From positions 10,180 to 74,179 of IMG/VR virus record IMGVR_UViG_3300017964_000010: DNA of 64,000 nucleotides; one strand, given 5' to 3'. The stretch comes from a virus. A program made the position numbers and the translations under genes. Of the stretch, positions 1 through 49,263 are shown piece by piece; position 1 is the first letter of the stretch, and every line of letters starts with the position of its first letter. The notes below the pieces were generated by a model that had not been told where the DNA came from, made no database searches, and saw nothing but the letters and a program-made list of their open reading frames with translations.

Positions 1-3000
1 CACCATTTGATACTGTTAGATTTTCACCAAACCCTAAACCGCCAGATGAAGCAGATATGTTATGGCCAAATGCCATTGGATCATCAGTACCTGTTGATCC
101 ATCTGTAGTATTACTGTAACCAAATGCGTAGCCAGTTCCGAGAGTTGTTGTATTGCCGCCACCATAAGCATAGCCGCCATTTGCTACAGTATTTCCTACA
201 CCATAAGCATAACCATTATCTACAGAAGTGTTTCCGTACCCAAATAAGAAACCATTTCTAGTAATAATATTATTAGTACCAAATATATAACTTGTTCCAC
301 TCGGACCTGTAGAACCGGTATTACCACTACCATAAATATTAACTTGTCCGTTATTGGTATTTAAATGCCCAAATATATTAACACCGGAATTGTTGGAGTT
401 ACTATTACCATAAATTCTAACAGTACCTCGGGTATTGACTGCATTGGAAGGTGAATTATTAGTATTACCCCATCCAAAAACAGAAACACCGGCCCAGTAA
501 CCATTATGTCCGCTGTTATTTCTACCTACAAAAAGACCATTGTAGTTATTACTTCTATTATTATCACCAACAATTACTAAGCCACCATAATAACCGTTTC
601 CATTATTACTACCGCCTATAAGTATACTTCTTGGTCCCGCATTATTACTTGCACCAATAGCAACACCGCCACCGTATGCAGCTGCAGTATTACCAGAACC
701 AATAGCAACACCGCCCCAGTTGGTAGAATTGCTTCTACCTATACTGGTACCACTTTGGGTTGCATCTGATGTTGTACCAATTGAAACACCACTTAGATTA
801 GATGATACTGATGAACCAATTGATTTACCACTATTAGATGAAGTATTACTAACACCAATTGAAACACCGCTAGTGTTTGCAGTCAAAGATGTACCAATTG
901 CAACACCACCATTTGATGAAGATGCTACTGTACCTATAGAAGTTGAACTATAGGAAGTTGCTGATCTACCAATTGAAACACCACTTAGGTTAGATGGTGA
1001 TAATCTACCAATTGAAACACCACTATTACTTGCACGTTGATCAAGTCCTATAGAAACTGATGCAGTGGTTGTTGTTGAAGATACATCTTTACCAATTGAA
1101 ACACCGCTATTACTGGTTATTGATTTACCAATTGCAACAGCATTTGCAAAGTTGTTATTTACAATATTTTCACCAATTGAAACCGACCCTGCAAAGTTCT
1201 GGTTGTGGTATATGTTAGCACCAATACCAACACCATCTTGAGATGGGTTATCAATCGTATTACCAATTGCAACAGCATTAGTTCTAGGTAATATTGCATT
1301 TCCGGCTTTTACATCATAACCAAGGGCTAAAGAATAATCTGTAGCTAATGTATTATAACCTATACCAACCGATGCTCTTCCAACTTCAGTATCATCCCAA
1401 GTTACGGTTGTTCCATCTACTGCACCAACTCTAAATGCTCCCCTTTGGGGTATCCACATCATCCGAGCACCGGCATTAGTTCCATATCTAGGATTAATTG
1501 TAAAATCTGGAATTACATTTGGTGTTGTTATAGCAACTCCAGCACTATCCCAATCACCATGATAGAAAATTGCATTACCACTCTTTACAAAGAATTTAGT
1601 ATCACTATCACCAAGGACCATATCCTGTGGTTCACCAATAACAACTGCACCACCAGCATCATAATATATTTGTTGATTACCGACAGCATCATTATTATAA
1701 CTCCAAACACTTTGAAGTCTATTACCGATATAATTTGAATCAACAATTCTTTCTATATTTGAATCAAAAGATAAACCACCAGGACCATAATACATTGTAA
1801 CATTTGAATCAAAGGTAAATGATCCGACTGTTGCATTAACTGAAACGGGACCTGTAAAACTAGTTGAACTTGAAATTAGATTATTAGCCGTTAGAGTATC
1901 AACTGTGGTATGATATCCATTATTAACAGTTACATTACCATTAAATGTTGCTGGGCCAAGTAGTGAAAGAGAAGTTGTTACTTTAGGTGATTTATCATCA
2001 ATTCTAAATATATCATTTAGTGCTACTGAAGTTGCATCATCTGTAAATGATACAGTATTTGCATCAATAATACTAAATGTGCCACCATATCCAGATTTTG
2101 GATTTTGTAAAGAGTCTAGGAGACCTCCTGCACTATAAACGGTGTTAATATTAAGATTATCACCATTTATATCAAGACCCGTAAATGTAATTGTAGTAGG
2201 AAGTGTTCTAAGATTTACATTTAAAGATAGATCAGCCGAATCAACAGCATCTTCATAAACTCTAAAGGAATTTGGATTTGCAAAGAAGTAATCGGAAGAT
2301 GAAAGAACCTGTGAATCACCTAAACTATCAATTCTATATACTTCGACAAATCTCTGTTCTGGAGGTGTTGGAAAATAGAAAGCTTCAAATTCAGAATCAG
2401 TATTTACATTAAGAGCTGCTATCAAAGCTCCTTGACTTAATGTATTTAAATTATTAGATAATAATGAAGAAGTTATCTGGAAGAAATAATCGCTATCAAC
2501 TGTAACTTGTGTTCCAGAAATATTAACTGGACCGCCGGTTACTGTTAGTCCGCTATCAAATCTTCCAACACCAGCAACGTGAAATTTAGTTACTGGCTGA
2601 TCTGTTCCAATACCAACATTTACATTTCTAACATTTGGATAAGTGCCAAAGAATAGTGTGTTATCTCTCCTTTGCCATTCAGAACTATCATTAGCTGCAG
2701 AAAGAATATATGAACTATCAACAATTGATTTTATATAAGCTTCATCAATAAACGATGCAAGTGTAGCTGCATTTAAAACAACTCTTGAACTAACATAAGC
2801 ATTATCTATTATTGATGCAAGATAATCTTCTGTCGGCCATTGTCTAACTTGACCTAGACTATTTCTTATGCTTATAGGGCTATTGCCGGCATTGTCGTCC
2901 AAGTAATCATTAGCATCTTCAATAAGAATTGGTGCTTTACCTATATTTCTTACAGACAGAGCTAAAGTATGATCTGCTAATAAAGTAGGTGTTAATTCAG

Positions 3001-6000
3001 AAGGTTGAAGACCACCTAGTAATGATTTTACACTACCTGAAGGTTTATAGTAAAGAGCATCTGGATGTGCTTGCCAGAATGCATCATTAGAAACTCTTGC
3101 TTGGACATAATCAGTATCCAAGAAATCTATCATTGTAGGTATTACTAAGTTGCCTGGACGGATAACGTGACTATCAAATGATAGACCACCAATAGTAATA
3201 GCACTTCCGCCTAATGTAAATGCTCCTCCAACGGTAATACCTTGTGAATCAAATCTAAAGTTTTTGTTACCAGCTGTACTTGTAAAGGCTAAATCACCAC
3301 TAAATGTAACACCTTGTGAATCAACTCTTAAGTTTGTACCATCACCTCCGACAAAAAGATCACCAAGGACATTTAAATTCGGACTAAGAACTCTTGGTGG
3401 TGTATATGGCACAGAAAGAACATCACCAGCATCACCAAAATCAAATCCATCAATTATTGTTATATTACTATCAATCAGACCTCCTGATATAACTGGAGGA
3501 CCACCATGAGAATCTCTGCGAAGAGCAAACTGGAATGAATCAATTGGATCAGCAAAGTAGAAAATTGTATCTAAATTATTTCCTGCATTTGTTGTTAATT
3601 CGGTTAAAGGAATATTAGAAAGTTGTATGGCTTTGGTTAAATCTGGATCAAAAGTACGAACAGGATGACCTGTGTTTTTAACATATAATTCGTGATCATA
3701 AGGTACTTTAATTCTTACTGCATTAGTAATAGCACCAATAGTATGATCAAACTGAATTGAATCAATTCCTGTGCCTATTATAGATCCAGTTCCAAATCCT
3801 GGTCCGACTGATGTAGTACTACCAAACCCAAGATAATCTTGAATTGTTTTTGGTCCAAAGTATATCGTTGCTCCGCTATCAACTCTTATTGAACCAGCGA
3901 CATCAAGAGCATAATCAGCATTATTTTTACCTATTGCAACTTTAGTATTGTCGAGAGAACTATCATTAGCTGCAGAAGTATTTAATATAATATGATCAGA
4001 TTTATTATTAGCTGTTACATTTCTACCAATTATAAATGTATTTGTAGTATTACCTTTTATAAGGTTATCTTCACCAAGTATAAAGTTATTAGAACCAGTA
4101 GCTATACTATCAAGAATATTATTCGTACCTATAAATGTAGTGTAACTTCCTTTCAAACTTGTGAATGATAAATCACCGCCGCGGCTAATATTATTTTCAT
4201 TACCAATAGCTGTACTATAAAGACCAGATACGGCGTTATTTCTTCCTAATGCAATAGATCCAAAACCTAGTTTTTCATTTGATAATTGATTATCAAAATC
4301 CGAGAATCTACCAACTCTAAATAATTCTAATTTTGGCTGATATGTTAAAAGATTAACATCACCGGCAATAAATGGAATTGAATCCATTAGTTGTGCATCT
4401 GTAACGGTAAATGTGCCGTCTGTAATACCACTTACAGCAAAACCTTCTTGTGCTAAAATATCAAGATCATAAGTAGCAATTTTATTAATTCCAAGAGGTT
4501 TAGGAACATTTGTAGAATCTACAACGGCATATCTAACAGCTTCACCTTCATCTACAAATGGTGTTGTACTTTGATAGACACCAGGAGCCCCTTCTTGCAA
4601 AAGTTCTCCTGCTAATATGATATTGCCTTTTACATAAAGGTTTCCGTCATAATTATTAAATTTATCACCAGAATCACCAATAATTACGTTACCATAATTA
4701 ATAGCTAAAATTCTTTCTGAGTGAACATTCATAGGAACATTAGATAGGTTGATACCTATGGCATTATCTGCACTAGAATCTATTCTAATATTTCTACCAA
4801 TACCAGTAGCATTATCACCATGTATTCTAATGTCCGTACCAAGTGCTACACCAAGATTTGCATCTATAAAGTTATTATCTCCAAATGCATAGGAAGGTGA
4901 ACCTTTTAATATATTTGCGCTGCCTACAGCATAAGCACCACCACCAGTTATGGTATTATAGGTACCTATTGCATAAGAACCAGAGGCAGCTGTTGCACTT
5001 GCAGTTGTTCCAATAGTATTATTGTAACCGAATACACCAGCTAAATTACCATTTACATTATTTTCAGTACCAATACCTATGACACTAGTACCATATAAAT
5101 GATTTTCTTTACCAATACCAATTGCAAATTGTGTACTACCAATAGGGACAGATGAATCGACTGTAACATCAGTACCTATTAATATAGTACCCGTATTATT
5201 TGCCCTAGTTTTAGTTCTTCTGCCTAAAGCTATAGAATAATCCGCTTCAGCTTCTGTTAAAGAACCTATAGCTAGTGATGCTAAACCTTTTGCTCTAGTT
5301 GCTTCACCAAATGCGGTAGAAAATAATCCAATATTACCTTGAATATAATCTCCAGAGGGCCCACCTCTAAAGTAGCCGCCTCTTGTAGCACCTTTTGATG
5401 TAATATATGTAAATCTTGATCCATTACTATCATCCATATAAGAAGCCATTGGACCAGCAAGAGTATTGAGAGCATAAACAATACCTGTAGAATCAATTTG
5501 GCCTCTTACAGATATATCTCCAATAACGTCCAATTTATATTTTGGAGTATCCGTTCCAATTGCAACTCTACCATAAGATTGTAAAGATATTGCATATGGA
5601 TCAGTAATATCAGATAAAGGAATATTATAAGCAGCATCTGCAGTTGGTTCATTTTTTATAAAAATACCACCACCGGTAAAGATAGAACCATCTTTATAAA
5701 TATTTCCAGTGAAGTTTATAGAACCGTCTTTTCTTACTTCAAAAAGTGTACTATCATAACGAGCTAAAACTTCAATAACATTAAATGAGTCAGAGTTCGG
5801 AGCATTTTTTGCTAGTGAAGATTTAAAGATATTTTCATGTGCAGTAGATACCAATTTAGCAGAATCAGTAAATATTTCTAAACCATAAAAGTCTCTTGGT
5901 GCAGAAATATTAGACGGTAGTGTCCAAGTTGATGGAGCATAATATGTGCCAAACTGTGCAGTTGTAAATCTACCTAATTGAATATCGCCGGTAGCAATAA

Positions 6001-8158
6001 TTTTACCGGTATTATCATCAACATTAAATCTATAGTATCCTGAATCATATAATTTTTGAAAGGATGTTGCAAAACCGTCATTAGTGATAATACTACTAAC
6101 ATGATTACCGTATTTAAGACCTTCGGTAAATCCAATTGAATCATTATCACCTGAAGTTAAAATATAACCTGGATATAAAGATGTTAGTTTTACATCTCTT
6201 GCAACCAAGTCTTTTTCTACAGTAACTTGACCATTACTAAGATCAAAACTTAAAGAAGAATCAGAAGTTAAAGTGCCGTTATTATCTATTATTGCAACTG
6301 TATTTGGTTTAAAATTACCAAATGCACCAGTTAATTTGCCAGTAATATGTAAATTACCTATGGTTGCAGAGTCAATAGTAATTGCTGCTATTTTTGCTGA
6401 ATCTGCATAAAAGTGTTTAAAATTTCCTGAATCAATTCTAAGTACACTTATATCTGCTGAATCTGCATCTAAATATGGAGTAATAATTCCAGATCCAGAA
6501 ACAGTTAAATTGCCAGATCTTAAAACATTAATATCAGCAGAATCTATATTAGCATAATTAGATGTTAACTTATTTGTAGTAATACTATCTGCCTGTATTC
6601 CAGAAAGATAAATATTTCTCCATCTCTGATCTGAACTACCAATATCAAATGCAAGGCTTGTATTAGGTATTAAGTGAGAATTAATATCACCACTAAAAAC
6701 TATATTATCTTCGTTGCTGTCACCAAGATAAATATTACCGCCTGTTGCTGATTTTATTGTAGCATTACCGGATACGGTAAGGTCTCCACCTACGGAAAGA
6801 TTGCCTTTTATATGAGCACTATCTACAGTAAGACCACTAATTCTTGCTAAATTGATGTCTGCTGAATCAATATCTGCATACTCTATACCAGCGCTATCTA
6901 TGGTTGCTCTTGTAATATCAGCATAAATAGAAGTAAGATCCGTTATAATACCACTATCTGCATATATTGCAGGAACATCTATATCTTTATTAAATACCCA
7001 TCTATCAGGTGTAGCTTCATAAGTTATTTTAGCGTTGGCTGCAAATACTGTAATACCGGCACCATCTGCTTGACTTGAATCTTGAGCAGAGTCTGCAAGA
7101 ACAATATTTTTATCATTAACGGTAACTGTAGTTGAGTTTACTATTGTCTCAGTACCATCAACCTGTAAATCGCCTTTAATAATAACTTTACCAGTATTAT
7201 CTCCTACAGCAGCAGGATCTATAACAAAGATTTGAGGCCCATTTATTTGACCAGTGATATTTAAAATATCAATTTGTGCAGAATCAATATAAGCATGTTT
7301 AATATCTGCTGAATCAATATAAGCTGTAATAATTCTTGTTAAATCTACATCAGAAGAATCTATATCTGCATAATTGATTCTAGCAAGAGTAATATCAGCT
7401 GAATCAATGTCTGTATGATCTATATCTGCATATCTAATATAAGCAGAATCAATTTCCGCATTGGTAATTCTAGCAAGAGTAATATCTGCTGAATCAATAA
7501 TTGCGTGTAAAATATCTGCACTATCAATATAAGCAGTAATAATATCTGCCATAATAATATCTGCTGAATCAATATAAGCATGACCAATATCTGCAGAATC
7601 AGCATAAAGAGCAGTAAATCTATTTCCTAGTTTACCAATATATCTTGCACCAACAATAAATATTTCATTTCCATCAAGCCCGGCTGGAAGATTATCACCA
7701 ATAAAGTTAAGTACACCAGATTGATAATCAAAGAAAAATTCATCATTATTACCAGAACCAGCAGCAAATATTCTAGTCCCAGAAGTTTGTGGATCCGTTG
7801 TACCAGAAGGTGCAATATAAACTTTTACAGCATAAGTGGAACCAAATTGCGGAGGAATCCAATTAGTTAAATTTGTTTTCCAAGTTCTATTAGGGGTTGC
7901 AGTAGTATCTTTTACTGCTTCTATTGAAGAAGATCCATTTCCGCTATCATCATAAATTTCAATAATGCCAATACTTAAACTAGGTAGTATATTAGGTATT
8001 TGATAAGCATCAGTCCATAAATTATTTCCGTCCAAAAGTAAAGGACTTGCAATTGCTTCGTTTGTAGCAGTTTTAATTGAATTGATATCTGTCTTTGTTG
8101 CTCCGTAACCAAGCTTTTTCCAAAGAAAGTCTATCTTTTGATTGTCACTTATTGACAT
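1..8158 (-). CDS. Giant tail fibre/adhesin-like virion protein (>2719 aa, 3' end outside window)
   Basis: ATG at 8158 (MSISDNQKIDFLWKKLGYGATKTD...). Spot translations at ~7440, ~3850 and 1-80 are in the same frame. Its absence from the ORF track fits having no stop in the window. It has IDSAD-type 5-residue repeats, GIGT-type fibre motifs and YadA-head-like GVSIG/AIG repeats. Confidence 0.85.
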   Translation of the reverse strand, partial: MSISDNQKIDFLWKKLGYGATKTDINSIKTATNEAIASPLLLDGNNLWTDAYQIPNILPSLSIGIIEIYDDSGNGSSSIEAVKDTTATPNRTWKTNLTNWIPPQFGSTYAVKVYIAPSGTTDPQTSGTRIFAAGSGNNDEFFFDYQSGVLNFIGDNLPAGLDGNEIFIVGARYIGKLGNRFTALYADSADIGHAYIDSADIIMADIITAYIDSADILHAIIDSADITLARITNAEIDSAYIRYADIDHTDIDSADITLARINYADIDSSDVDLTRIITAYIDSADIKHAYIDSAQIDILNITGQINGPQIFVIDPAAVGDNTGKVIIKGDLQVDGTETIVNSTTVTVNDKNIVLADSAQDSSQADGAGITVFAANAKITYEATPDRWVFNKDIDVPAIYADSGIITDLTSIYADITRATIDSAGIEYADIDSADINLARISGLTVDSAHIKGNLSVGGDLTVSGNATIKSATGGNIYLGDSNEDNIVFSGDINSHLIPNTSLAFDIGSSDQRWRNIYLSGIQADSITTNKLTSNYANIDSADINVLRSGNLTVSGSGIITPYLDADSADISVLRIDSGNFKHFYADSAKIAAITIDSATIGNLHITGKLTGAFGNFKPNTVAIIDNNGTLTSDSSLSFDLSNGQVTVEKDLVARDVKLTSLYPGYILTSGDNDSIGFTEGLKYGNHVSSIITNDGFATSFQKLYDSGYYRFNVDDNTGKIIATGDIQLGRFTTAQFGTYYAPSTWTLPSNISAPRDFYGLEIFTDSAKLVSTAHENIFKSSLAKNAPNSDSFNVIEVLARYDSTLFEVRKDGSINFTGNIYKDGSIFTGGGIFIKNEPTADAAYNIPLSDITDPYAISLQSYGRVAIGTDTPKYKLDVIGDISVRGQIDSTGIVYALNTLAGPMASYMDDSNGSRFTYITSKGATRGGYFRGGPSGDYIQGNIGLFSTAFGEATRAKGLASLAIGSLTEAEADYSIALGRRTKTRANNTGTILIGTDVTVDSSVPIGSTQFAIGIGKENHLYGTSVIGIGTENNVNGNLAGVFGYNNTIGTTASATAASGSYAIGTYNTITGGGAYAVGSANILKGSPSYAFGDNNFIDANLGVALGTDIRIHGDNATGIGRNIRIDSSADNAIGINLSNVPMNVHSERILAINYGNVIIGDSGDKFNNYDGNLYVKGNIILAGELLQEGAPGVYQSTTPFVDEGEAVRYAVVDSTNVPKPLGINKIATYDLDILAQEGFAVSGITDGTFTVTDAQLMDSIPFIAGDVNLLTYQPKLELFRVGRFSDFDNQLSNEKLGFGSIALGRNNAVSGLYSTAIGNENNISRGGDLSFTSLKGSYTTFIGTNNILDSIATGSNNFILGEDNLIKGNTTNTFIIGRNVTANNKSDHIILNTSAANDSSLDNTKVAIGKNNADYALDVAGSIRVDSGATIYFGPKTIQDYLGFGSTTSVGPGFGTGSIIGTGIDSIQFDHTIGAITNAVRIKVPYDHELYVKNTGHPVRTFDPDLTKAIQLSNIPLTELTTNAGNNLDTIFYFADPIDSFQFALRRDSHGGPPVISGGLIDSNITIIDGFDFGDAGDVLSVPYTPPRVLSPNLNVLGDLFVGGDGTNLRVDSQGVTFSGDLAFTSTAGNKNFRFDSQGITVGGAFTLGGSAITIGGLSFDSHVIRPGNLVIPTMIDFLDTDYVQARVSNDAFWQAHPDALYYKPSGSVKSLLGGLQPSELTPTLLADHTLALSVRNIGKAPILIEDANDYLDDNAGNSPISIRNSLGQVRQWPTEDYLASIIDNAYVSSRVVLNAATLASFIDEAYIKSIVDSSYILSAANDSSEWQRRDNTLFFGTYPNVRNVNVGIGTDQPVTKFHVAGVGRFDSGLTVTGGPVNISGTQVTVDSDYFFQITSSLLSNNLNTLSQGALIAALNVNTDSEFEAFYFPTPPEQRFVEVYRIDSLGDSQVLSSSDYFFANPNSFRVYEDAVDSADLSLNVNLRTLPTTITFTGLDINGDNLNINTVYSAGGLLDSLQNPKSGYGGTFSIIDANTVSFTDDATSVALNDIFRIDDKSPKVTTSLSLLGPATFNGNVTVNNGYHTTVDTLTANNLISSSTSFTGPVSVNATVGSFTFDSNVTMYYGPGGLSFDSNIERIVDSNYIGNRLQSVWSYNNDAVGNQQIYYDAGGAVVIGEPQDMVLGDSDTKFFVKSGNAIFYHGDWDSAGVAITTPNVIPDFTINPRYGTNAGARMMWIPQRGAFRVGAVDGTTVTWDDTEVGRASVGIGYNTLATDYSLALGYDVKAGNAILPRTNAVAIGNTIDNPSQDGVGIGANIYHNQNFAGSVSIGENIVNNNFANAVAIGKSITSNSGVSIGKDVSSTTTTASVSIGLDQRASNSGVSIGRLSPSNLSGVSIGRSATSYSSTSIGTVASSSNGGVAIGTSLTANTSGVSIGVSNTSSNSGKSIGSSVSSNLSGVSIGTTSDATQSGTSIGRSNSTNWGGVAIGSGNTAAAYGGGVAIGASNNAGPRSILIGGSNNGNGYYGGLVIVGDNNRSNNYNGLFVGRNNSGHNGYWAGVSVFGWGNTNNSPSNAVNTRGTVRIYGNSNSNNSGVNIFGHLNTNNGQVNIYGSGNTGSTGPSGTSYIFGTNNIITRNGFLFGYGNTSVDNGYAYGVGNTVANGGYAYGGGNTTTLGTGYAFGYSNTTDGSTGTDDPMAFGHNISASSGGLGFGENLTVSNG
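680..1270 (-). repeat. ~39-nt (13-aa) tandem coding repeats, S-G-V-S-I-G type
   Basis: Plus-strand accaattgaaacacc(a/g)ct or close variants at ~776, 815, 854, 893, 932, 968, 1007, 1091. Confidence 0.8.
6360..7620 (-). repeat. Pentapeptide-like (I/A)DSAD repeat region
   Basis: About 21 Asp-Ser motifs in ~415 codons, e.g. YADSADIGHAYIDSADIIMADIITAYIDSADILHAIIDSADITLARI. Confidence 0.8.
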
Positions 8159-18988: not shown

Positions 18989-21900
18989 TTAATCTCCTAA
19001 TGCAATTACTCTAAGATCACGTATTACAGGTACCTTAGTCTGATTTCCTGATCTCATAACAATTTTCAATTGAAACTGTGTAAATTCTTCACTAGAACCA
19101 TCAGATTTACCAACTAAGTAACGATATTCTCTAAAGATAAGAGGATCATCATCGGAACCAATTGCTTTTTCTGGTTCAACTTTAATAAATGGTATACCTT
19201 CTATTGAAGCTTCGCTGGTTACTCTATAATACATATCAATAAATGTATCTGATGGTCTATTAGCTCCCATAAGAATTTTTAATCCAACTGATGATGCTGT
19301 TAATCTTACCGGTTTTGTTATATGTTTAGCAATAGAAGGACCGTCTTCCCTTGTTTCTCCAAATAGTGGATCATAGTATGCCGTTCTGTTACTGGTGCCC
19401 ATAATAGCATTTACTGTATCACTATCTAATGAGTGAGACCATTCAATAGGCTTATTCTGAGTTGTACTTTGTGTATTACTTGGATTATCAATAAGATTTG
19501 TAGTAAGGGTTGCCGAGTTTCTTTGTAAGTCGATAACAGGACTTACATAAACATTACTTGATCTTATTTCAGCTTCTAAAACTAAAGATGTTGCAAGCTT
19601 AGAAGGTGGAGAAACTCTATGCATTGTTCTCATAATATTATCTTGATTAGGAGAAACCAACGTAGATACAGTATCAAGTATATCAACACTTCCTAAAATA
19701 TTTGGAGTATTATCCGCATATGATTTACCAGTAGACATTTTAACCTGATAATCTATTCTAGTTTTTGGTGGTTCAATTGCTTGAACAGCTGGCCAAATAA
19801 TATTATAATTATATGCTTGTTCAACAGATACGTTATTACCACCAGTTATTGATCTAAAATATAAATTTGGTTTTGTAAGACTAGATGGTGCTGAAAATAC
19901 AAATCCAGTAGGATCAACTTCAGTTAAAGTAAATGGTGTATTATTTAAGTCACTATCTATTGGTGTTCCAGTGATTCCACTTAAATTAATAGTGTCTCCT
20001 ACATATAAACCGTGTAATGGTGATCTAACGTAAACATCACTATAATTTGAACTATCTCTAAAGAAAAATTCTATAGGATCTGAAGCTAAGATTCTTTTTG
20101 GTACCGGAACATTTTTAAAGACGGCTTTCGTTGTTTTATCTACATGGAATTCAGCTTTATATAATGTAAATTTAAGATCAGTTTTAAAATCTGGTTCCCA
20201 AGTTCTACTATTCTGCGATTTAAAGAAAGAGCCAAGATATGGCTGAGTATTAATTTTTTCTGTTGTAGATCCTAATTTAAACTCGCCCATTGTTGAAATA
20301 TATGTTTCATATGCATCACTATTTGAAATAACTACAATAGCATATTCTGTAGCTGGTTTTAAATATACTGGTTCTCTAAATACTGCTTTTGTTTCTGCTG
20401 AAGCATCTGAAGAAACAACTACATCTGATGCCGGAATAGTAACAATCGAACCCGGTAGTGCAACATCTGAAGATGGAACACCATTTACTGTTGGTCTAAT
20501 TTGAATAGAAACCGGAAAAGCTTGATCGCTCGTATCTTTTTTTGAAAAGAATAGTCCGACTTCTGTTAAGAAAACACCAGTTCCTTCGGTAACTAAAAAT
20601 GATTGTGCAATAGGATCTTGATAACCAAGCACACATTTTATTACTCCTGCGGTATCTTGAACAATTCCTGTTGCAGTTTCAATTGTGTCATCAATTAAAT
20701 CTCCAGTAGCAGTAGCCACACCGCCCATAGCAGATGTTATTCCTCCAATGAGATCTCCTTGGAAAACCTCTCCTATACCATCAGCAATACCTCCAGCAAC
20801 AGTTTGTAAAGCACCAAGGAAGTCTATACCACCACCTTTTGATCTAACATTTATTGTTTCCGTCTTAGTTGTAGACTCTCCGACAATATGAAGCATTCTT
20901 GTAGATAAAACATCTTCTTGTCTTGTAGTAAGTGTTCCAGTAGAACTAAAAATTGCCTGAGCAGCACATGATGCATTTTGCTTTTTAAACTCTGTAATAT
21001 CTAATAGAGTAAATTCTAAATCTCCAGTTCTAAAATTACCGTTAGCACGGGTGCTTGATGATGGTATAAAGAAACTGCCTTGAATTTTACCCGAACCGTC
21101 GGTATAAAGTTTTGTTTTTCCGCCTAAATTGCTCGGATATTCCGTTGCTGATTTATATAAATTGCTTACTTCAGTTTGTTTTGTAGTGTTAACACCAGTA
21201 AATTGATCTTGTCTTACCCAATCTGCAATAGATCTGCCGTCAAAATAAGCAAATACTTGTGTATTAGGAGCTAAACCTTCGGCTTGGAAACTCACAATCT
21301 TTGATCTCATAAAAGGTAAAAATGCAACATCAACGACCCGATCATCAATTATTTCTCTAATAGTTTCTGAAGCAACAACTCTATTTACAACAGTTTCTGT
21401 TGTAACATCAGTTCCTCTAGTAGTTTTTTTGTTCCAGAACCAACCTTTTGTTTCTTTCCAATCTCTTCTTGATATTTCATTAGTAACTGAAGCTTCAGCT
21501 CCGACATCAAGACCATCAATATCAGTGCCGCCCCAATTCCATTCATGGGCTCCCCATTGAAGTGCCAAATCAGTATTAAGCAGAGTTCCGCCGGGAATAA
21601 TTTTTTCTGGAAGATAATCTGTTTCATACCAATCATCTGATGCAGGAGAAAGAGTTAATGATCCATTATAAAATAAATTTAAATAAGGATTAACATTTAT
21701 TGTAGAGGAAGCAACGTCTTGAACAATATAAGGTGTTGTAGTATATGTTGTATATACATTATCGCCTTTCATAATTGTATTTGTAGAAGCATTTGAATCG
21801 TAATAAAAACCAATATTATTTGTAATTGCTCTGGGTCTTAACGCTTTATTTCTAGGATCTATTGCAGCAGAATAATCAGGATGTGTAATATCGGAATAAT

Positions 21901-24547
21901 ATTGATTTTCAAAATTATCTGCCATAAGCCCAGATTTAGTTCTGTTTCTATTATCAGAATCTAAAACATCAATATTAGCAGTATCCATTTCTAATAAAGT
22001 GAGAGATGTTACCTCGGTAAGATCATCAATCTTTTTTTCAATCTTTGCTATATCTCTCATAGTATAACGTTTATTGTCAAGCATAGTGAATTGCAAATCT
22101 TTAGGACCGAAAGTTCCTGGATTCATTCTAACTCTATAAAGTTCCATAGCATCTGGAGGAGTAGGCGGGAATTTAGGTGTTAAACTAGGTCTACCTTGAA
22201 TATATTTAAATTCACCTTCTTGTGTTAATAATACTTTATCATATCTTGCTTCATATAAATTTACGTCTGCTATAATAGTAGAACCATTTCTTGGTAAAAT
22301 AAAAACTTCAGCATCTGATGTTGAAAATGTTCCGCTACTACCTTTTGATGATCTAAAATCCAAATAATTTTTAAGATCAATATATTGACCATTTGCTAAT
22401 TTATAATTTGGTATATCTTGATAATTTATACTAGAATATGAACTTGGTCCAAAAAAGTCTCCAGAACCATGTTCAAAATAAGTAAACTCTACATATAATG
22501 TTATACTTGTGTTATTAAAATTACCTGTTATTGTTCTACCAGATTTTATTCTAATAGAACCTTTAGCATATAAATTATCTCTTTGTCCACCATCAACAAT
22601 AAATTTATCAGTAACAAGATTACCGTTTTTTGATTGAACTCTAATTTCTTCTACACTAATAACATCAGTAAAAGGTAAAGAAGCTGTGCCTACACTAGGA
22701 TTAAATGTTACTAAAGCTGATGTAGAAATCTTTGTTTTAGATGCAACCGTTGCTTGTTGTTTAAATGTATATGCATATACTTCATAGGTATCGCCAGCAA
22801 CAACACCATTATCTACAAGAGGATCTCCTGTTGAACCCTTTAAACCAGAAATAGTTATACTTGAAAATCCTACTGAACCATAGCTAGGAGTTTGACCAAG
22901 CGTTACTCCGCCAGCATCTGCAATAACCCATCCATTAGTATCAGTAAAAATTTCACCTGCTGGAGCATTTATAGTGATAGTTCCTGCACCATTTGCAATA
23001 GATGCTGTAGCTGTATATCTTCTTGCAAGAGTCATGGAAACATCTGAAACTGAACTTGGTCTCTCGCCTGGTATCTTAAAGAATAGCTCATTTGCTTCTG
23101 ATTCAAAAATAGACACTTTATTATTATTTCTAACAAGAATCATTTCTTGTCTATCACAATTACATAAAGAAACTTCAACACCAATTGATTTTGCATCTCT
23201 ATTAAACTGTTTACCTGGATTCATATTAATGTCAAATATATATACTTTATATGTACCCGAACCAGGTTCACCACGATCTATACCCCTTACTCTTAAAGTT
23301 CCTATAGTATCGGGTGCTGTGCTACTAAAAGTAGGAGATACATCAGTATCACTAATTGTAAGTAATTCAAATACGTTTACGTTTGGTATACCATAAAAAC
23401 CTTCTTTTACAAGAATATAGTTTCCATAGTTACCAGAAATACCTTGATTTTCTTGAGTTACCGTAGTAGTTGATCTAGGTACACTTAACGAACTTGCAGA
23501 AGATTTATTTATTCTGTAACCATTTACATAAGCCGTACCACTACTTACAGATAAATTAAGTTTAGAATTATCAGTACTATGATCTTCCCAAGAAATTCTA
23601 AAAGGTTTTACTGTATAATTACCAGACTCTTCCCTGGTACGTACAGCCATAATATCATTTATTTTATTATATTGTTCATATCCAGTAACCGCTTCTGATA
23701 ATACACCATGTTCAATTTTAGCATAATAAATAAATGTTTCACCGGGCTGAATGGTATTTTTATTTACAAGTTCAAGTTTAATTGTATATCTGTCGGCACC
23801 AGGAGCAGTATAATTAGGCAATTCCCCCTGATTATCATATAAAGTATCATCATCATCGGCTGTAGTTATCACTTGGGTAAGTTTAAAACCAATGGTAGCA
23901 GTTGGGTTTGAAAAATACTTTGCTACAATTAAATCTTGCCTAGGAACATAAACAAAATGACCTTCTGCAAAAAATGTTGCTGGTCCAGCAGAAACTCTAA
24001 ATCCATAACCAGTTGCCGGATCTGCTGTAGTATTTGTAGTTTGAGCAACTAATACCAAAGACCCATCTTTTTCAAGTAATTCTTCTCCAGGTCTTATTGA
24101 AGCCGGAGTTGTTCCGGATGTGCCATTTAATGTATCAAGATATTGTACATATATTGTAGCCGGATCATTTACGGTAGCTTCAATGATTTCAATTATTTTT
24201 ACTGAAATGCCAGATAGCTGCCCAACAAAAACTTTATCTTTAAAATTAGATATATTAGCAGGAAGAGCAACACCAGGAGTTACTACATCTGTAGGATCAG
24301 TATTTAGTTTAACATATCTATAACGAGTATTGGCAGTAACTGAAGCTGCTTCAAGTGAAGCCCCCTCTTTAAAAAGATTTGTACCAAGCCTTTTTATTTC
24401 TTCTTGAATAATCGATTGAAGCTGATTTAATTCTCTGCTCTGAAGGGCTTTACCACTTTTAAATAATACTTTATGATATCCCTTATCAGGATCAAAGTCA
24501 TCTCTATAAATCTGATTTTCTAAATTTTTAGTGTAATTAATAGACAT
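18989..24547 (-). CDS. DUF4815/VrlC-like large virion structural protein
   Basis: Y.DDFD..K.YHKVLFK.G.ALQ.RELNQLQSI, RT.EESGNY, DPIAQSF and terminal IRDLRVIAL motifs. Start taken as the ATG overlapping the gp8 stop. Confidence 0.85.
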   Translation of the reverse strand: MSINYTKNLENQIYRDDFDPDKGYHKVLFKSGKALQSRELNQLQSIIQEEIKRLGTNLFKEGASLEAASVTANTRYRYVKLNTDPTDVVTPGVALPANISNFKDKVFVGQLSGISVKIIEIIEATVNDPATIYVQYLDTLNGTSGTTPASIRPGEELLEKDGSLVLVAQTTNTTADPATGYGFRVSAGPATFFAEGHFVYVPRQDLIVAKYFSNPTATIGFKLTQVITTADDDDTLYDNQGELPNYTAPGADRYTIKLELVNKNTIQPGETFIYYAKIEHGVLSEAVTGYEQYNKINDIMAVRTREESGNYTVKPFRISWEDHSTDNSKLNLSVSSGTAYVNGYRINKSSASSLSVPRSTTTVTQENQGISGNYGNYILVKEGFYGIPNVNVFELLTISDTDVSPTFSSTAPDTIGTLRVRGIDRGEPGSGTYKVYIFDINMNPGKQFNRDAKSIGVEVSLCNCDRQEMILVRNNNKVSIFESEANELFFKIPGERPSSVSDVSMTLARRYTATASIANGAGTITINAPAGEIFTDTNGWVIADAGGVTLGQTPSYGSVGFSSITISGLKGSTGDPLVDNGVVAGDTYEVYAYTFKQQATVASKTKISTSALVTFNPSVGTASLPFTDVISVEEIRVQSKNGNLVTDKFIVDGGQRDNLYAKGSIRIKSGRTITGNFNNTSITLYVEFTYFEHGSGDFFGPSSYSSINYQDIPNYKLANGQYIDLKNYLDFRSSKGSSGTFSTSDAEVFILPRNGSTIIADVNLYEARYDKVLLTQEGEFKYIQGRPSLTPKFPPTPPDAMELYRVRMNPGTFGPKDLQFTMLDNKRYTMRDIAKIEKKIDDLTEVTSLTLLEMDTANIDVLDSDNRNRTKSGLMADNFENQYYSDITHPDYSAAIDPRNKALRPRAITNNIGFYYDSNASTNTIMKGDNVYTTYTTTPYIVQDVASSTINVNPYLNLFYNGSLTLSPASDDWYETDYLPEKIIPGGTLLNTDLALQWGAHEWNWGGTDIDGLDVGAEASVTNEISRRDWKETKGWFWNKKTTRGTDVTTETVVNRVVASETIREIIDDRVVDVAFLPFMRSKIVSFQAEGLAPNTQVFAYFDGRSIADWVRQDQFTGVNTTKQTEVSNLYKSATEYPSNLGGKTKLYTDGSGKIQGSFFIPSSSTRANGNFRTGDLEFTLLDITEFKKQNASCAAQAIFSSTGTLTTRQEDVLSTRMLHIVGESTTKTETINVRSKGGGIDFLGALQTVAGGIADGIGEVFQGDLIGGITSAMGGVATATGDLIDDTIETATGIVQDTAGVIKCVLGYQDPIAQSFLVTEGTGVFLTEVGLFFSKKDTSDQAFPVSIQIRPTVNGVPSSDVALPGSIVTIPASDVVVSSDASAETKAVFREPVYLKPATEYAIVVISNSDAYETYISTMGEFKLGSTTEKINTQPYLGSFFKSQNSRTWEPDFKTDLKFTLYKAEFHVDKTTKAVFKNVPVPKRILASDPIEFFFRDSSNYSDVYVRSPLHGLYVGDTINLSGITGTPIDSDLNNTPFTLTEVDPTGFVFSAPSSLTKPNLYFRSITGGNNVSVEQAYNYNIIWPAVQAIEPPKTRIDYQVKMSTGKSYADNTPNILGSVDILDTVSTLVSPNQDNIMRTMHRVSPPSKLATSLVLEAEIRSSNVYVSPVIDLQRNSATLTTNLIDNPSNTQSTTQNKPIEWSHSLDSDTVNAIMGTSNRTAYYDPLFGETREDGPSIAKHITKPVRLTASSVGLKILMGANRPSDTFIDMYYRVTSEASIEGIPFIKVEPEKAIGSDDDPLIFREYRYLVGKSDGSSEEFTQFQLKIVMRSGNQTKVPVIRDLRVIALGD

Positions 24548-25911
24548 TAGCACTCATCCAATTGAATAACTATTTTAATATCTTCTGTTTGATTTGCAAC
24601 TCTAGTAACTGCAGACCTATTATCTATATACAATACTTCACCTGTAAATGGATCAACTTCTGATCTTATTAACGGATTACCTATGGTTCCTTGACCTGGA
24701 CCGGTTAATTCTGTTATAGTTTCACTTGCAATAAAAGGTGCATAACCAGTAGAATCATTTTGATGATATAACAATATGTTTTGGTTCGTTTGATCAACAT
24801 AAGCTCTAGCACCACTTGTAGCACCAATAATAATTTCATCTGTTGAAAATGCAATAGGATTTGTTGAAAGAGTCATCGATTGTAATGCATTACCAGTAAG
24901 ACTTGTCCATTGGGAACCTTGTGCAGAATCTTTAATTCCTCTAATAATACCAATCTGTCTATAATCTTGATTTATAAGCCAATCTGATGTATTTCCGTCA
25001 ACTCTTACTCCAATCATCATAGAACCACATTTAAGATCAGAAGATGCATCTCCACCAATACCCAATCCGCTTGACATAATAGCTCTTACTTCACCGTTTG
25101 TCCCATCCTGATCTGTAAGTGTAATTTGAGCACCTCTTAATCCATGAACATAATTTAAAGTTGTTCCTGAAGAATCTGGATTATATTCTGCTTTAATAAT
25201 TGAACCCGTACCGGAATCTAAAGTAAAATTGACAAGTGATGGATAATTAACACCATTAATATTTACTGAAGGATTGCTGTAATTTGATCCGCCTGCTATT
25301 ACTTCAAAGGAAGTAATCATTCCTGGCTTTGCAGTTTGTTGTATTTCATATTGCTTAATTTCATTACCTGTAGAATTTGAATCTACAGATAAAATTCTAT
25401 TAATAGGCATATGATCATTAGTCATAAATAAAGTAGCATCTAGTGCACTAATAGTATAGAGAAATTTCCAAACATAACCATCTGAAGTTTCAAACGGGTC
25501 ATTATTAGCTCCTGTAGGTTCTACTATCGAAGGTACTGCAGAACCAATTGAATCTGTTCCTTGTCTTAAACAAATATAAACATCATTATTATTATTTGCA
25601 GTATAAAAATATTCTGAACTATAATCTGTTAAATCTTTTTTATCATCATATGCAACGTATGTAGATCCTGTTTTCCAGGATTTACGAGGAACAACTAAAG
25701 AAGCTGCCGCTACTCTATGAATAGATTGCAAACCATTCCTAAAATCATTTTGGATTCTAATATTGTCTTTTGCAACAGGAGCAGAATCTAAAGCATTCCA
25801 TGGATTGGATCGAGACACACCAATATAATAGTTTTCTGTAGTATTATTAATACTACGAATAGTCCCAATCATGAGTTCTTTTTTAAAGTTTTGTGTTACA
25901 ACTGTTGACAT
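24547..25911 (-). CDS. gp8: Baseplate wedge protein gp8-like
   Basis: VYICL, DGYVWKFLYTI, DYRQIGII and GEVLYIDNR..V.R...Q.EDIKIVI motifs. Confidence 0.85.
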   Translation of the reverse strand: MSTVVTQNFKKELMIGTIRSINNTTENYYIGVSRSNPWNALDSAPVAKDNIRIQNDFRNGLQSIHRVAAASLVVPRKSWKTGSTYVAYDDKKDLTDYSSEYFYTANNNNDVYICLRQGTDSIGSAVPSIVEPTGANNDPFETSDGYVWKFLYTISALDATLFMTNDHMPINRILSVDSNSTGNEIKQYEIQQTAKPGMITSFEVIAGGSNYSNPSVNINGVNYPSLVNFTLDSGTGSIIKAEYNPDSSGTTLNYVHGLRGAQITLTDQDGTNGEVRAIMSSGLGIGGDASSDLKCGSMMIGVRVDGNTSDWLINQDYRQIGIIRGIKDSAQGSQWTSLTGNALQSMTLSTNPIAFSTDEIIIGATSGARAYVDQTNQNILLYHQNDSTGYAPFIASETITELTGPGQGTIGNPLIRSEVDPFTGEVLYIDNRSAVTRVANQTEDIKIVIQLDEC

Positions 25912-47240: not shown

Positions 47241-47574
47241 CTATTAGATTACTCCAAGTTTTAAGTTTATTTCTTTTAGAACTACTTCTTGCATAAATTT
47301 CTTTCCAATCAAGAATACCATGTTCACACATTAAATCAATCATACAATAAACATCTCCAACTTCTTCAAGAAGTTTATTTCTTTGATCATTTTCTATATC
47401 CGATATTTTTTCATACTTACGGACAATCTTACTACACCTTTGTGTAAGTTCACCACATTCTTCAGCAGTAATAATCATTAACTGCTGAAGTTTGTTGATG
47501 GGACTAGTAGGATTAGAATTGCTTTGTCCAAGATATTCTTCATAATCCTCTAAATCGTAAAACATTCCAGTCAT
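47233..47574 (-). CDS. MazG-like NTP pyrophosphohydrolase
   Basis: AEECGEL...LLEEVGDV (ExxE...ExxD). Confidence 0.8.
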   Translation of the reverse strand: MTGMFYDLEDYEEYLGQSNSNPTSPINKLQQLMIITAEECGELTQRCSKIVRKYEKISDIENDQRNKLLEEVGDVYCMIDLMCEHGILDWKEIYARSSSKRNKLKTWSNLIDE

Positions 47575-47771
47575 AAAAATTGTACCTCCACTACTTCTTT
47601 TTCTTTCATCAAAGTAACGACCCTAGCTTTGCTATGCTTACCCCTTACGTGAACTTCAAACCATTCCCTGGCTTCCGTTTCAGTCTCGCAAACTACTGCA
47701 ACCCACTCAGGCAATTCACTCTTGACTGCTTGGCACATAGTGCTGAATTGTGTTGTTACCGTCCAAGTCAT
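47571..47771 (-). CDS. Hypothetical protein
   Basis: 66 aa, ATGA overlaps at both ends. Confidence 0.6.
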   Translation of the reverse strand: MTWTVTTQFSTMCQAVKSELPEWVAVVCETETEAREWFEVHVRGKHSKARVVTLMKEKEVVEVQFL

Positions 47772-47902
47772 TTGTTAAGCATCCTCATACAAGTTAAAAC
47801 CGAGTTTTCTTCTAGGCAGTCGCTCCACACATAGTAAGTATAGTAGCCAAAGCCTGTGAAAAATACTAGTGAGCAAGCAATAATAATCAAGTTTTTAGTC
47901 AT
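47768..47902 (-). CDS. 44-aa membrane microprotein (not in ORF track)
   Basis: AAGGAG SD. MTKNLIIIACSLVFFTGFGYYTYYVWSDCLEENSVLTCMRMLNK. ATGA overlap with the next gene. Confidence 0.7.
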   Translation of the reverse strand: MTKNLIIIACSLVFFTGFGYYTYYVWSDCLEENSVLTCMRMLNK

Positions 47903-47908
47903 TTTTAA

Positions 47909-48100
47909 ACTCCTTTCAGCATACGCCTGAGCTAGTATCTCCAATCTCTCCGCACGGCCTTATTGACATTGCCGCTCTAGTTTGATTGAAACTAACATCC
48001 ATGGTTTTCACGTCACCGATATTTCGCGGGCGAATATATTCACCAGAGATAGTGCTTTTAGCTGATCAACGCCTCCACACAGACGTATGCTGAAAAGAGT
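47909..48100 (-). ncRNA. 192-nt structured RNA (family not established; manA-motif-like size and context)
   Basis: 21-bp closing stem 48080-48100/47909-47929 with two G-U pairs that work only on the minus strand, plus nested stems. GC-richer than the flanks and non-coding. Confidence 0.8.
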
Positions 48101-48108
48101 CTTTAAAC

Positions 48109-48411
48109 TCAATCCCATTCATTATCATACCTTATTGTTTCAAACATTGTTTCTCCATAGTGTTCTTTTGCATATTTGGACCCATCAGTCCAATAATTTG
48201 GATTTTCACCATCTTTTATATTTAAGATAGTAAGAGGATCCTTACGGTTCTTACGTGCTTTTAACATAACGGAACGAGCTTTTTTACCTTTCTCTTTAAT
48301 CTCATTCATTTTAATTTGACGAGCACGGTCGGCTTTCTTTTCTGCTTTACGTCTTTCTGCAATCTCTTTGATGAGAGTAAGACGTTCGGTTTGTGTTTTA
48401 GCTATAGTCAT
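48109..48411 (-). CDS. Basic hypothetical protein
   Basis: Start moved to MTIAK (48411), downstream of the promoter at 48439-48467. Confidence 0.65.
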   Translation of the reverse strand: MTIAKTQTERLTLIKEIAERRKAEKKADRARQIKMNEIKEKGKKARSVMLKARKNRKDPLTILNIKDGENPNYWTDGSKYAKEHYGETMFETIRYDNEWD

Positions 48412-48438
48412 AATCCATCCGATTCTTTTTACACTACC

Positions 48439-48477
48439 AATATAGTATAATTTTAGGGGCTTGTAAACCCCTAAAAT
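48439..48477 (-). promoter_or_regulatory. Early-like promoter with a 10-bp inverted repeat around the -35 box
   Basis: GTTTACA-17-TATATT. attttagggg (48450-48459) and cccctaaaat (48468-48477). Confidence 0.75.
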
Positions 48478-48483
48478 CAATTT

Positions 48484-49263
48484 TTAAGAGAAAAAATCAT
48501 CTATAATATTAAAGGCATCTTCAATACTAAGTTGACTATTAATTCCATATGTTTCACGATTCCCAGTTTTTTCAATATCTTTATCCATTATATCATAATG
48601 GCTTAAAAATTCGAATATCTGTTCTTTGCGATATGCAATCTTATCTTTCTCTTGAGCTTGTATTTGAAATCTAAAATGTTTTATGTTTCCATCGGATGCA
48701 ACCAAAATATTTGGTTGTAATTGTTCACGAGTGGAAAAACTAAGCCAAGTCATTTCAGATTTAATTTCTACAACTGTAAGCCGTCCTTTTAGTTTTTCAT
48801 AGTTTTCTATATACCATTCAGGTAAAGCTTCAAAATTATCCTTCTGTGATGAAGTATAAACATTGAAAAGTTCGGAAAATTTAGCCATTTTAAAACACTC
48901 CTTATAGTGGCCAGACACACTGTTATCCGATGGTGTGTACGATGAAATAAGATATGATTCAAGAAGAAATGATTGAGCATCTTTTTTTCTATCAAAATCA
49001 AATCTTTCAAGATTTTTAGCTATAATATAAAGATCATTTATATCATAGTCCTTTTCTTTAATGTGCTGTATTGCACGATTACGATTACCTTTACCTATAT
49101 ATTGCCATTTGCCATCTTTTAAATAGCCGTAGACATATTGGCCTAAAGTTTGCCAAAAATCCATAGGTGCGCTATTCAGAAACGGTGCAAACTTAACATT
49201 TTTTCTTGGCAGAACCTCTACAGCACCTGGAAGTCCAAAAAAAGCACTCATCACTATCCCCAA
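48484..49263 (-). CDS. GIY-YIG-like (LEM-3-type) nuclease
   Basis: YVYGY...YIGKG...R..QH, LES.LI, N.VSGH. Confidence 0.65.
   Translation of the reverse strand: MGIVMSAFFGLPGAVEVLPRKNVKFAPFLNSAPMDFWQTLGQYVYGYLKDGKWQYIGKGNRNRAIQHIKEKDYDINDLYIIAKNLERFDFDRKKDAQSFLLESYLISSYTPSDNSVSGHYKECFKMAKFSELFNVYTSSQKDNFEALPEWYIENYEKLKGRLTVVEIKSEMTWLSFSTREQLQPNILVASDGNIKHFRFQIQAQEKDKIAYRKEQIFEFLSHYDIMDKDIEKTGNRETYGINSQLSIEDAFNIIDDFFS

Follow-up and report, generated by a model that had tools for sequence, protein, structure and literature searches.

A conserved four-arm non-coding RNA in a viral genome fragment, with a Shine-Dalgarno sequence in its closing helix and a probable self-pairing loop

A 64,000-nt stretch of viral DNA (IMG/VR record IMGVR_UViG_3300017964_000010, positions 10,180-74,179; hereafter referred to as the window) was found to contain a genuine gene for a folded, conserved and strand-specific non-coding RNA (ncRNA) domain. 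The element consists of four arms (P1 to P4), P1 being a long closing helix, and fills the gap on the minus strand between an open reading frame (ORF) of 100 aa on its 5' side and an ORF of 44 aa on its 3' side. We favor, with moderate confidence, the interpretation that it represents one copy of an uncatalogued four-arm ncRNA of large uncultured marine myoviruses, acting as a P2-docked dimer and featuring a P1 helix that doubles as a ribosome-binding site. The analysis is based on an alignment of 55 distinct full-length elements of 138-223 nt (A3, with the window copy as row 1, the sequences being related to one another), on a model of the four-arm RNA family built in the present analysis (R1), and on a survey of 65 distinct genomic contexts. 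Relatives were obtained from 80 viral loci sharing the nearby MazG-like gene, several of which carry an element homologue directly 5' of that gene, with neither the 44-aa nor a 66-aa ORF intervening, and from 84 viral contigs matching a pattern of the P4 loop. A pattern of the P3 core matched 33-34 viral contigs. The members of A3 were gathered with the P4-loop pattern. R1 identified the element of the window as the sole copy within its 74-kb contig. The parts of the element, in coordinates of the window, are as follows:

47908..48101, minus strand: whole ncRNA element of 194 nt, four arms closed by P1 (R1 score 142.6 bits, E 1.3e-33)
48081..48101, minus strand: 5' arm of P1, GACUCUUUUCAGCAUACGUCU, including the anti-Shine-Dalgarno sequence CUCUUU (A3 columns 2-22, pairing with 218-238)
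47908..47928, minus strand: 3' arm of P1, AGGCGUAUGCUGAAAGGAGUU, including the Shine-Dalgarno (SD) sequence AAGGAG at 47915-47910 (from the pairing and the probability of the SD being unpaired)
48052..48080, minus strand: P2 hairpin with the apical palindrome UGAUCA at 48068-48063 (covarying helices 2 and 3)
47997..48050, minus strand: P3 arm, its closing helix joining 48050-48043 with 48004-47997, with a C48046.U48001 mismatch (two-sided changes)
48005..48042, minus strand: P3 module at the P3 tip, with two UGAAA-type pentamers around the inner helix CGCCYG/CRGUGWCG (found in 33-34 contigs)
47931..47996, minus strand: P4, a long and irregular hairpin whose 12-nt loop, AAUGUCAAUAAG, spans 47970-47959 (helices 7-9)

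P1 joins positions 48101-48081 with 47928-47908 over 21 bp, or 22 bp if the pair G48080-C47929 is counted, and includes three G-U pairs (G48101.U47908, U48096.G47913, and U48083.G47926). The energy of the duplex was calculated to be -32.6 kcal/mol, and within the full fold the bases of AAAGGAGU, as well as those of the AAGGAG, had a probability of being unpaired below 0.005. The region as a whole folded at -72.3 kcal/mol compared to -51.4 kcal/mol for shuffled sequences (z = -4.5), none of 200 shuffles folding as well. Among the relatives, changes on both sides were observed for 10 of the 21 pairs of P1, with 97.9% of the alignment cells paired. The helix measures 20-21 bp in every family member, a 1-nt deletion affecting both arms jointly (columns 16/224), and its top is conserved as CGUCYG / GGGCG, to which the window conforms. 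The RNA is read from the minus strand of the window, because the invariant U.G pair of columns 20/220 would be a mismatch on the opposite strand. A preliminary description of this DNA, made from the letters alone, had claimed a 21-bp closing helix with G-U pairs on the minus RNA and the AAGGAG of the 44-aa ORF inside its 3' arm. Helix, strand, and SD position were all confirmed, whereas the claimed size of 192 nt had to be corrected.

The four-arm fold comprises 61 modelled pairs, which were realized in 97.5% of the cells of A3, compared to 38-47% when the partners were slid by 1-3 columns as a control. Changes on both sides were found for 26 of these pairs, and none of 500 column shuffles of A3 attained the fold in any of five measures. 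The covariation score of the supported arms (P2, P3, and P4) reached 0.233 versus 0.129 for the shuffles, again without any of the 500 attaining it. Covariation among homologues, which the preliminary description had proposed to look for, is thus strong for this fold. In P2, the conserved flanks GUGYRGAGR and CUNAAAGCAC surround a variable apex. P3, whose closing strands in the window are AUCUCUGG/CCAUGGAU, shows changes on both sides for all five aligned pairs and represents the variable arm of the family: it is missing in forms of 138-140 nt, consists of a plain AUCUC-tetraloop-GAGAU hairpin in forms of 150-154 nt, and is extended by a 45-nt module in forms of 189-196 nt, the window included, while forms of 217 and 223 nt (L140 and L143 being members of the latter) carry other inserts. 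The helices 7-9 of P4 were paired in 99.5-100% of the cells, and compensation was observed for the column pairs 158/203, 159/202, and 165/195. The P4 tip reads GCGGC-AAYGUCAAUAAG-GCCGU (47975-47954 in the window), its loop being invariant save for one Y position within a set that was itself selected by this loop.

Among the inner structures of the preliminary description, the hairpin CGGC-(12)-GCCG was retained as this P4 tip. The pairings AGCUA/UAGCU, UAUCUC/GAGAUA, and GGUGAA/UUCGCC and a pseudoknot between GGCGUUG and CAAUGUC can be drawn in the window, but lack covariation across the 55 relatives. The local hairpin UAGUUU/AAACUA likewise does not covary and is disrupted in seven sequences that have changed to C-G at the competing pair of P4. 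Taken jointly, these pairings and the pseudoknot had a covariation score of 0.088 compared to 0.087 for the shuffles, 190 of 500 of which attained it.

The apex of P2 points to an interaction between RNA copies. Its apical tetranucleotide (columns 36-39) was self-complementary in all 55 sequences, although the word itself varied (GGCC, GAUC/UGAUCA, CCGG, CCGGCCGG, CCGUACGG, GUAC, and one UCGG that is self-complementary via wobble pairs). Columns 36 and 39 pair in 55/55 sequences, and so do the adjacent columns 37 and 38, in which four types of pairs occur (GC 25, AU 17, CG 9, and UA 4). Since adjacent bases cannot pair inside one molecule, the latter pairing is best assigned to two RNA copies, and the element therefore probably pairs with a second copy of itself via a symmetric P2 kissing loop, as judged from the alignment. 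The same reasoning from palindrome covariation has been applied to the loops L9.3 of OLE and L21a of GOLLD, for which kissing loops were seen by cryo-electron microscopy (bioRxiv 10.1101/2024.12.08.627333). The signal of GOLLD, ROOL, and OLE, namely covariation that preserves a palindrome, is also present in P2, which represents a likeness in working mode and not membership of these families.

Some of these features could also be expected of an element acting in DNA, either as an insertion resembling a miniature inverted-repeat transposable element with 21-bp terminal inverted repeats or as a protein-binding or replication site. Terminal inverted repeats are present, different intergenic slots are occupied in related phages, and the loop palindromes match common restriction and methylation sites (GATC, GGCC, CCGG, GTAC). 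However, repeats recognized by a transposase conserve sequence rather than pairing, whereas the arms of the element vary by compensation and keep G-U pairs, including the invariant U.G, that are mismatched on the other strand. A DNA-level reading of the palindromes is moreover unlikely, because the word changes and self-complementarity alone persists. Furthermore, each of five large contigs searched whole (98-275 kb, four of them estimated to be 77-91% complete) contained a single copy. An element of DNA is hence considered highly improbable.

The genomic contexts revealed how the SD relates to the helix. AGGAG was located inside the 3' arm of P1 in 30 of the 65 contexts, each with an ATG 5-8 nt past the helix; no AGGAG was found in the arm without a subsequent ATG, and the 5' arm shows matching changes. 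The genes served in this way differ, including the 44-aa ORF, the 66-aa ORF, the MazG-like gene, the gene of an MRTVHYVG protein, and others. In at least seven contexts (L119, L131, L149, L163, L142, L164, and L161), the downstream ORF possesses its own SD past the helix. A tRNA starts 3-6 nt after P1 in eight contexts, several of them featuring a consensus promoter just 5' of the element, and in others a promoter, an intrinsic terminator, or a second smaller element (L087 and L125) comes next. In contexts with a tRNA or without a downstream ORF, the arm has the sequence AAUAG or AGUAG, with the 5' arm changed to match; at the column pair 6/234, 27 sequences have A-U and 23 have C-G. The stem is hence the constant part, its pairing being maintained by compensatory changes in members lacking the SD, whereas the SD represents an add-on introduced where needed. 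ARAGORN detected no tRNA within the window, and the placement next to a tRNA, being limited to 8/65 contexts, is not defining for the family. Since the 44-aa gene was found upstream of the element in contigs of the L113/L007 type and downstream of it in the window, the element changes its slot among related phages, so that either the RNA or the 44-aa gene has apparently moved between phages.

The buried SD raises the question of a dedicated cis-regulatory leader, in which the sensing of a ligand, of temperature, or of a protein would open or close P1 and control the 44-aa ORF together with the genes coupled to it. The stability of the helix and the almost complete pairing of the SD would suit such a leader, as would the recurrence of the arrangement in 30/65 contexts and the aptamer-like appearance of the highly conserved loops and junctions. 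However, the downstream genes are unrelated to one another, a tRNA, a promoter, or a terminator takes their place in other contexts, and the same downstream gene occurs elsewhere with its own SD outside the helix, as in the seven contexts named above. P1 persists by compensation where the SD is absent. Furthermore, no conserved alternative (anti-P1) structure was seen, an upstream hairpin with GACUC being present in one gene context only, and no Rfam riboswitch matched. A dedicated leader therefore appears quite unlikely. From the alternative offered by the preliminary description, a cis-regulatory or a processed ncRNA, the ncRNA is supported by the conserved fold, the unrelated neighbors, and the single copy in each of the five large contigs, whereas cis-regulation is only secondary and local.

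Another explanation concerns RNA processing. RNase III is known to excise rRNAs from long flanking stems and to cut intercistronic hairpins of phage T7. In a corresponding processing or insulator cassette, an RNase III-type cut in P1 would excise the element from polycistronic transcripts, expose the SD, and set the ends of neighboring mRNAs and tRNA precursors. The role of the inner arms would be limited to keeping the stem in register or stabilizing the products. The length of P1, which is held at 20-21 bp (approximately two duplex turns) with a 1-nt deletion shared by both arms, agrees with this assumption, and so does the position of the element, which is packed tightly between cistrons, with the upstream stop often abutting P1, or is located at the head of tRNA operons. 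However, the near-invariant 12-nt loop of P4, the conserved junctions, and the covarying palindrome of P2 far exceed the needs of a cleavage signal, and in tRNA operons a promoter together with RNase P would already set both ends. As an explanation of its own, such a cassette is rather unlikely; it could represent the maturation step of the dimeric ncRNA.

The favored interpretation of a dimeric ncRNA with a ribosome-binding site in its stem can be outlined as follows. The element behaves as a self-contained domain, which can open a tRNA operon, lie between early ORFs, or stand last in a transcript. Two RNAs are assumed to dock via the symmetric P2 kissing loop, and the element would act in trans as a homodimer, presenting two near-invariant P4 loops and, in the variant of the window, two 45-nt P3 modules to a partner. 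Because of the genomic company of the element, this partner is proposed to belong most plausibly to the translation or tRNA apparatus of host or phage. In tRNA operons, a promoter and RNase P would release the element as a discrete RNA. Between ORFs, it may remain embedded in the transcript or be excised, the two-turn length of P1 being suited for a double-strand-specific nuclease. In the window, the lower part of P1 would double as the ribosome-binding site of the 44-aa ORF, which would be masked in the folded RNA and translatable only once the base of P1 is opened. Opening might be achieved by a ribosome terminating on the upstream ORF, whose stop is brought beside the downstream start by P1, or by a nuclease cut in the 21-bp helix.

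Several observations weigh against this interpretation. The contigs available from metatranscriptomes are thin, and their breaks are uninformative: low-depth contigs span the 44-aa and 66-aa ORFs near-identically, and RNA libraries also contain relatives of the element and of a larger RNA bearing the P3 module, carry-over of DNA being possible in both cases, while contig ends at 47913-47915 may be due to assembly breaks at a repeated family. Among the deposited phage records, no cultured phage carries the RNA, and an experimental handle is thus missing. The probability of a 4-nt palindrome arising by chance in G+C-rich loops amounts to 0.05-0.7 per loop class, and the sequences are related; chance palindromes being fairly likely, the argument for a dimer rests on the covariation at columns 37/38. 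In the P3 module of the window, a loop base that does not vary elsewhere differs from the consensus, and the P3 stem contains the mismatch C48046.U48001. The module may be drifting in this phage. Finally, the gap of 7 nt between the upstream stop and P1 allows a terminating ribosome to reach only the first 2-3 bp of the helix, and coupling by unwinding is therefore weak or uncertain in the window. Constrained folds mimicking the unwinding by a ribosome were uninformative, as the freed SD re-paired elsewhere.

A bolder version, which we regard as unlikely, would make the homodimer of approximately 190 nt the smallest self-assembling phage RNA to date. Its near-invariant P4 loops and, in the variant of the window, a portable module resembling a double T-loop would capture tRNAs or ribosomes in the infected cell, and P1 would join a stop to the next start, with ribosomes crossing the folded insert.

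The family was compared with known structured RNAs. The preliminary description had pointed to a likeness with the manA motif, which was not substantiated: a cmscan of the whole window against Rfam 15 at the gathering score yielded no match, and the region 47500-48500 yielded only chance matches to unrelated families at E <= 10, none of them to a T-box or RNase P model. Fourteen related loci and the larger RNA of L094 were also searched against Rfam 15, which matched only tRNAs and tmRNAs near the relatives and never the element. Membership of manA, wcaG, GOLLD, ROOL, OLE, 6S, T-box, RNase P, or pRNA was rejected, as none of these was matched in Rfam 15. With the manA motif (RF01745), the element shares the property of being a structured marine-phage RNA of similar size, but the neighboring genes differ. 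A blastn search with the region of the window and another family member against 50,697 phage records remained without a match, and a pattern scan of 185,579 prokaryote genomes (one per species) yielded five matches to a 21-mer, none of which was a true member according to R1. The closest cultured relatives of the phage are distant, with no more than 41% identity along part of a baseplate protein. Possibly, the family is included in the anonymous candidates of a catalogue of viral structured RNAs (CSBJ 2023; PMC10690425).

GOLLD (RF01998), ROOL (RF03087), and OLE (RF01071) resemble the element in being structured RNAs without a known job, and two of them, GOLLD and ROOL, are encoded by phages or prophages, often next to tRNA genes. 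All three self-associate by symmetric kissing loops, the palindromes of which (GGCC, GAUC, AGCU) covary as in P2, and for GOLLD and ROOL the assembly of particles consisting of RNA only has recently been demonstrated. However, they are approximately 580-800 nt long, compared to 138-223 nt for the present family, and have no Rfam match to the element. In the latter, one self-complementary loop was found, so that a dimer and not a cage is expected, and it is often embedded between ORFs with a closing stem bearing an SD. The prohead RNA (pRNA) of phage phi29 (RF00044) is likewise a small structured phage RNA, forming multimers via intermolecular loop-loop pairs that covary among relatives. Its ring on the portal is held by pairing between two different loops, whereas the single palindromic loop of the element predicts a homodimer; neither sequence nor model matched, and the context of the element consists of early genes and tRNA operons, not of packaging genes.

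The RNAs rnaC and rnaD (species 1 and 2) of phage T4 are small stable RNAs of unknown function that are co-transcribed with phage tRNAs. Kinship with them was rejected, since R1, run with filters off on T4 positions 69000-75000, reached at most 2.9 bits on either RNA; rnaC features a tRNA-like T arm and has neither the 21-bp closing helix nor the P4 loop. SD-sequestering leaders and long-range coupling, as in RNA thermometers or the coat-replicase pair of MS2, resemble the element in that a helix strand containing the ribosome-binding site lies beside an upstream stop, but the helix of the element closes an autonomous domain of approximately 150 nt, which also exists without a downstream ORF. 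New in the present family are the SD written into a stem with compensation, the changes of slot, the modular construction of P3, and a 45-nt module that is portable. The family illustrates how an RNA gene can fit between protein genes and leave their expression intact, the foot of its stem being rewritten as a ribosome-binding site while pairing is kept. In view of its small size, which suits routine structural studies, its abundance in ocean viral contigs, its single occurrence per large contig searched, and the palindrome-preserving covariation of P2, it could become a tractable system for asking why self-associating RNAs are made by phages.

The P3 module is a hairpin of approximately 45 nt, including its closing stem, with the consensus CUGG-UGAAUAUAYCGCCCG-UGAAAUAY-CGGUGWCG-UGAAAA-CCAG. 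Its 19 distinct variants show covariation in the closing stems (UGG/CCA, GCG/CGU, ACG/CGU, and others) and at a single pair of the inner helix (U-A or C-G), and their unpaired stretches are near-invariant. The window has C48026 at the first base of the apical UGAAAUAY loop, where the 18 other variants have U. When folded alone, the module gave an ill-defined thermodynamic result (z from -0.3 to -3.0). It was also located at the hairpin tips of unrelated larger RNAs of approximately 400 nt, which points to a reusable and so far undescribed RNA building block. The larger RNAs bearing the module are:

L094:3712-4112, minus strand
L109:607-1037, minus strand
L083, minus strand, at the start of the reverse complement
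L092:14215-14590, plus strand

The type of approximately 400 nt (L094, L109, and L083) possesses its own TTGACA-17-TATATT promoter and a terminator, which is intrinsic in L094 and L109. The larger RNAs have the further blocks GACGUAGCCUGCGCGUCG..AAGGUCGGGC and GGGGAAAGCC in common, and the one of L109 contains an additional 12-nt palindrome, AAUCCGCGGAUU. L094 and the other larger RNAs bearing the module were unmatched in Rfam. Other RNAs with the module adjoin tRNA or tmRNA genes (L092, L090, and L112). Of the two conserved UGAAA pentamers, one lies in the apical loop (CGAAA in the window) and the other in the 3' strand of the internal loop; both recall T-loops of the U-N-N-R-A type. In T-box stem I, RNase P, and the L1 stalk, the elbow of the tRNA is bound by two interlocked T-loops (PMC4810234). 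By analogy, an interdigitated double T-loop would be an attractive idea for the P3 module, given its tRNA-rich neighborhoods, but its pentamers are spaced by a 6-bp bulged helix, a geometry unlike that of the known examples.

The neighboring features of the element in the window are:

47768..47902, minus strand: 44-aa ORF with a hydrophobic stretch, ATG at 47902, SD within P1 (from the ORF list)
48109..48411, minus strand: upstream basic ORF of 100 aa, ATG at 48411, its stop ending 7 nt before P1 (76-78% identity to relatives)
48439..48467, minus strand: promoter-like site TTTACA-17-TATATT (consensus match only)

The AAGGAG precedes the ATG of the 44-aa ORF by 7 nt, and the product of this ORF is a probable single-pass membrane microprotein. 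The gene is real and conserved; homologues with 41-62% identity were found in other contigs (e.g., L113:5302-5379 and L007:2751-2828). The coupled run that the preliminary description had placed behind the element was recovered, with overlapping genes for the 44-aa, 66-aa, MazG-like, and 81-aa proteins and a PD-(D/E)XK exonuclease. Searches of the neighboring proteins against Pfam and PHROGs identified the MazG-like pyrophosphohydrolase and the PD-(D/E)XK exonuclease only, and assigned no family to the 100-aa, 44-aa, 66-aa, and MRTVHYVG proteins. No terminator-like site was detected on the minus strand between the promoter-like site and the element, which would therefore lie inside an early polycistronic transcript.

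The 100-aa ORF is conserved at 76-78% identity in many contigs, where the element comes next on its downstream side. The N-terminal half of its product is very basic (K/R-rich), and by position and charge only, the protein is a candidate RNA-binding partner. Of the long ORFs detected upstream of the element, most have a stop codon ending at -7 to +2 nt relative to P1. At 48097-48110 on the minus strand, the window contains a hairpin, GAGU-UUAAAG-ACUC, followed by UUUU, the 3' half of which is common to the start of P1. A stronger version (GAGUC-UAAA-GACUC) occurs in relatives that share this upstream gene, and no such hairpin is present in other contexts. It might compete weakly with the base of P1 or just represent the terminal part of the upstream cistron. 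A role of the hairpin and its U-run as a conserved switch or terminator was rejected, as they are present in one gene context only.

Directly after a full element, the tandem second elements of L087 (420-530, minus strand) and L125 (5901-5994, minus strand) scored 49 and 33 bits with R1. They keep P1 and a palindromic P2, but their interior is shorter, different, and without the P4 loop, which suggests a wider superfamily defined by P1 plus P2.

Permuted tmRNA genes of the alphaproteobacterial type were found in phage contigs within a few hundred bases of the element or the module (L084:9451-9796 and L112:4022-4332), a hint at alphaproteobacterial hosts. The contig of the window was estimated to cover 33% of a genome of approximately 220 kb, and the structural region of this phage encodes very long ORFs of more than 2719 aa (2-8158, minus strand) and 1854 aa (18989-24553, minus strand).

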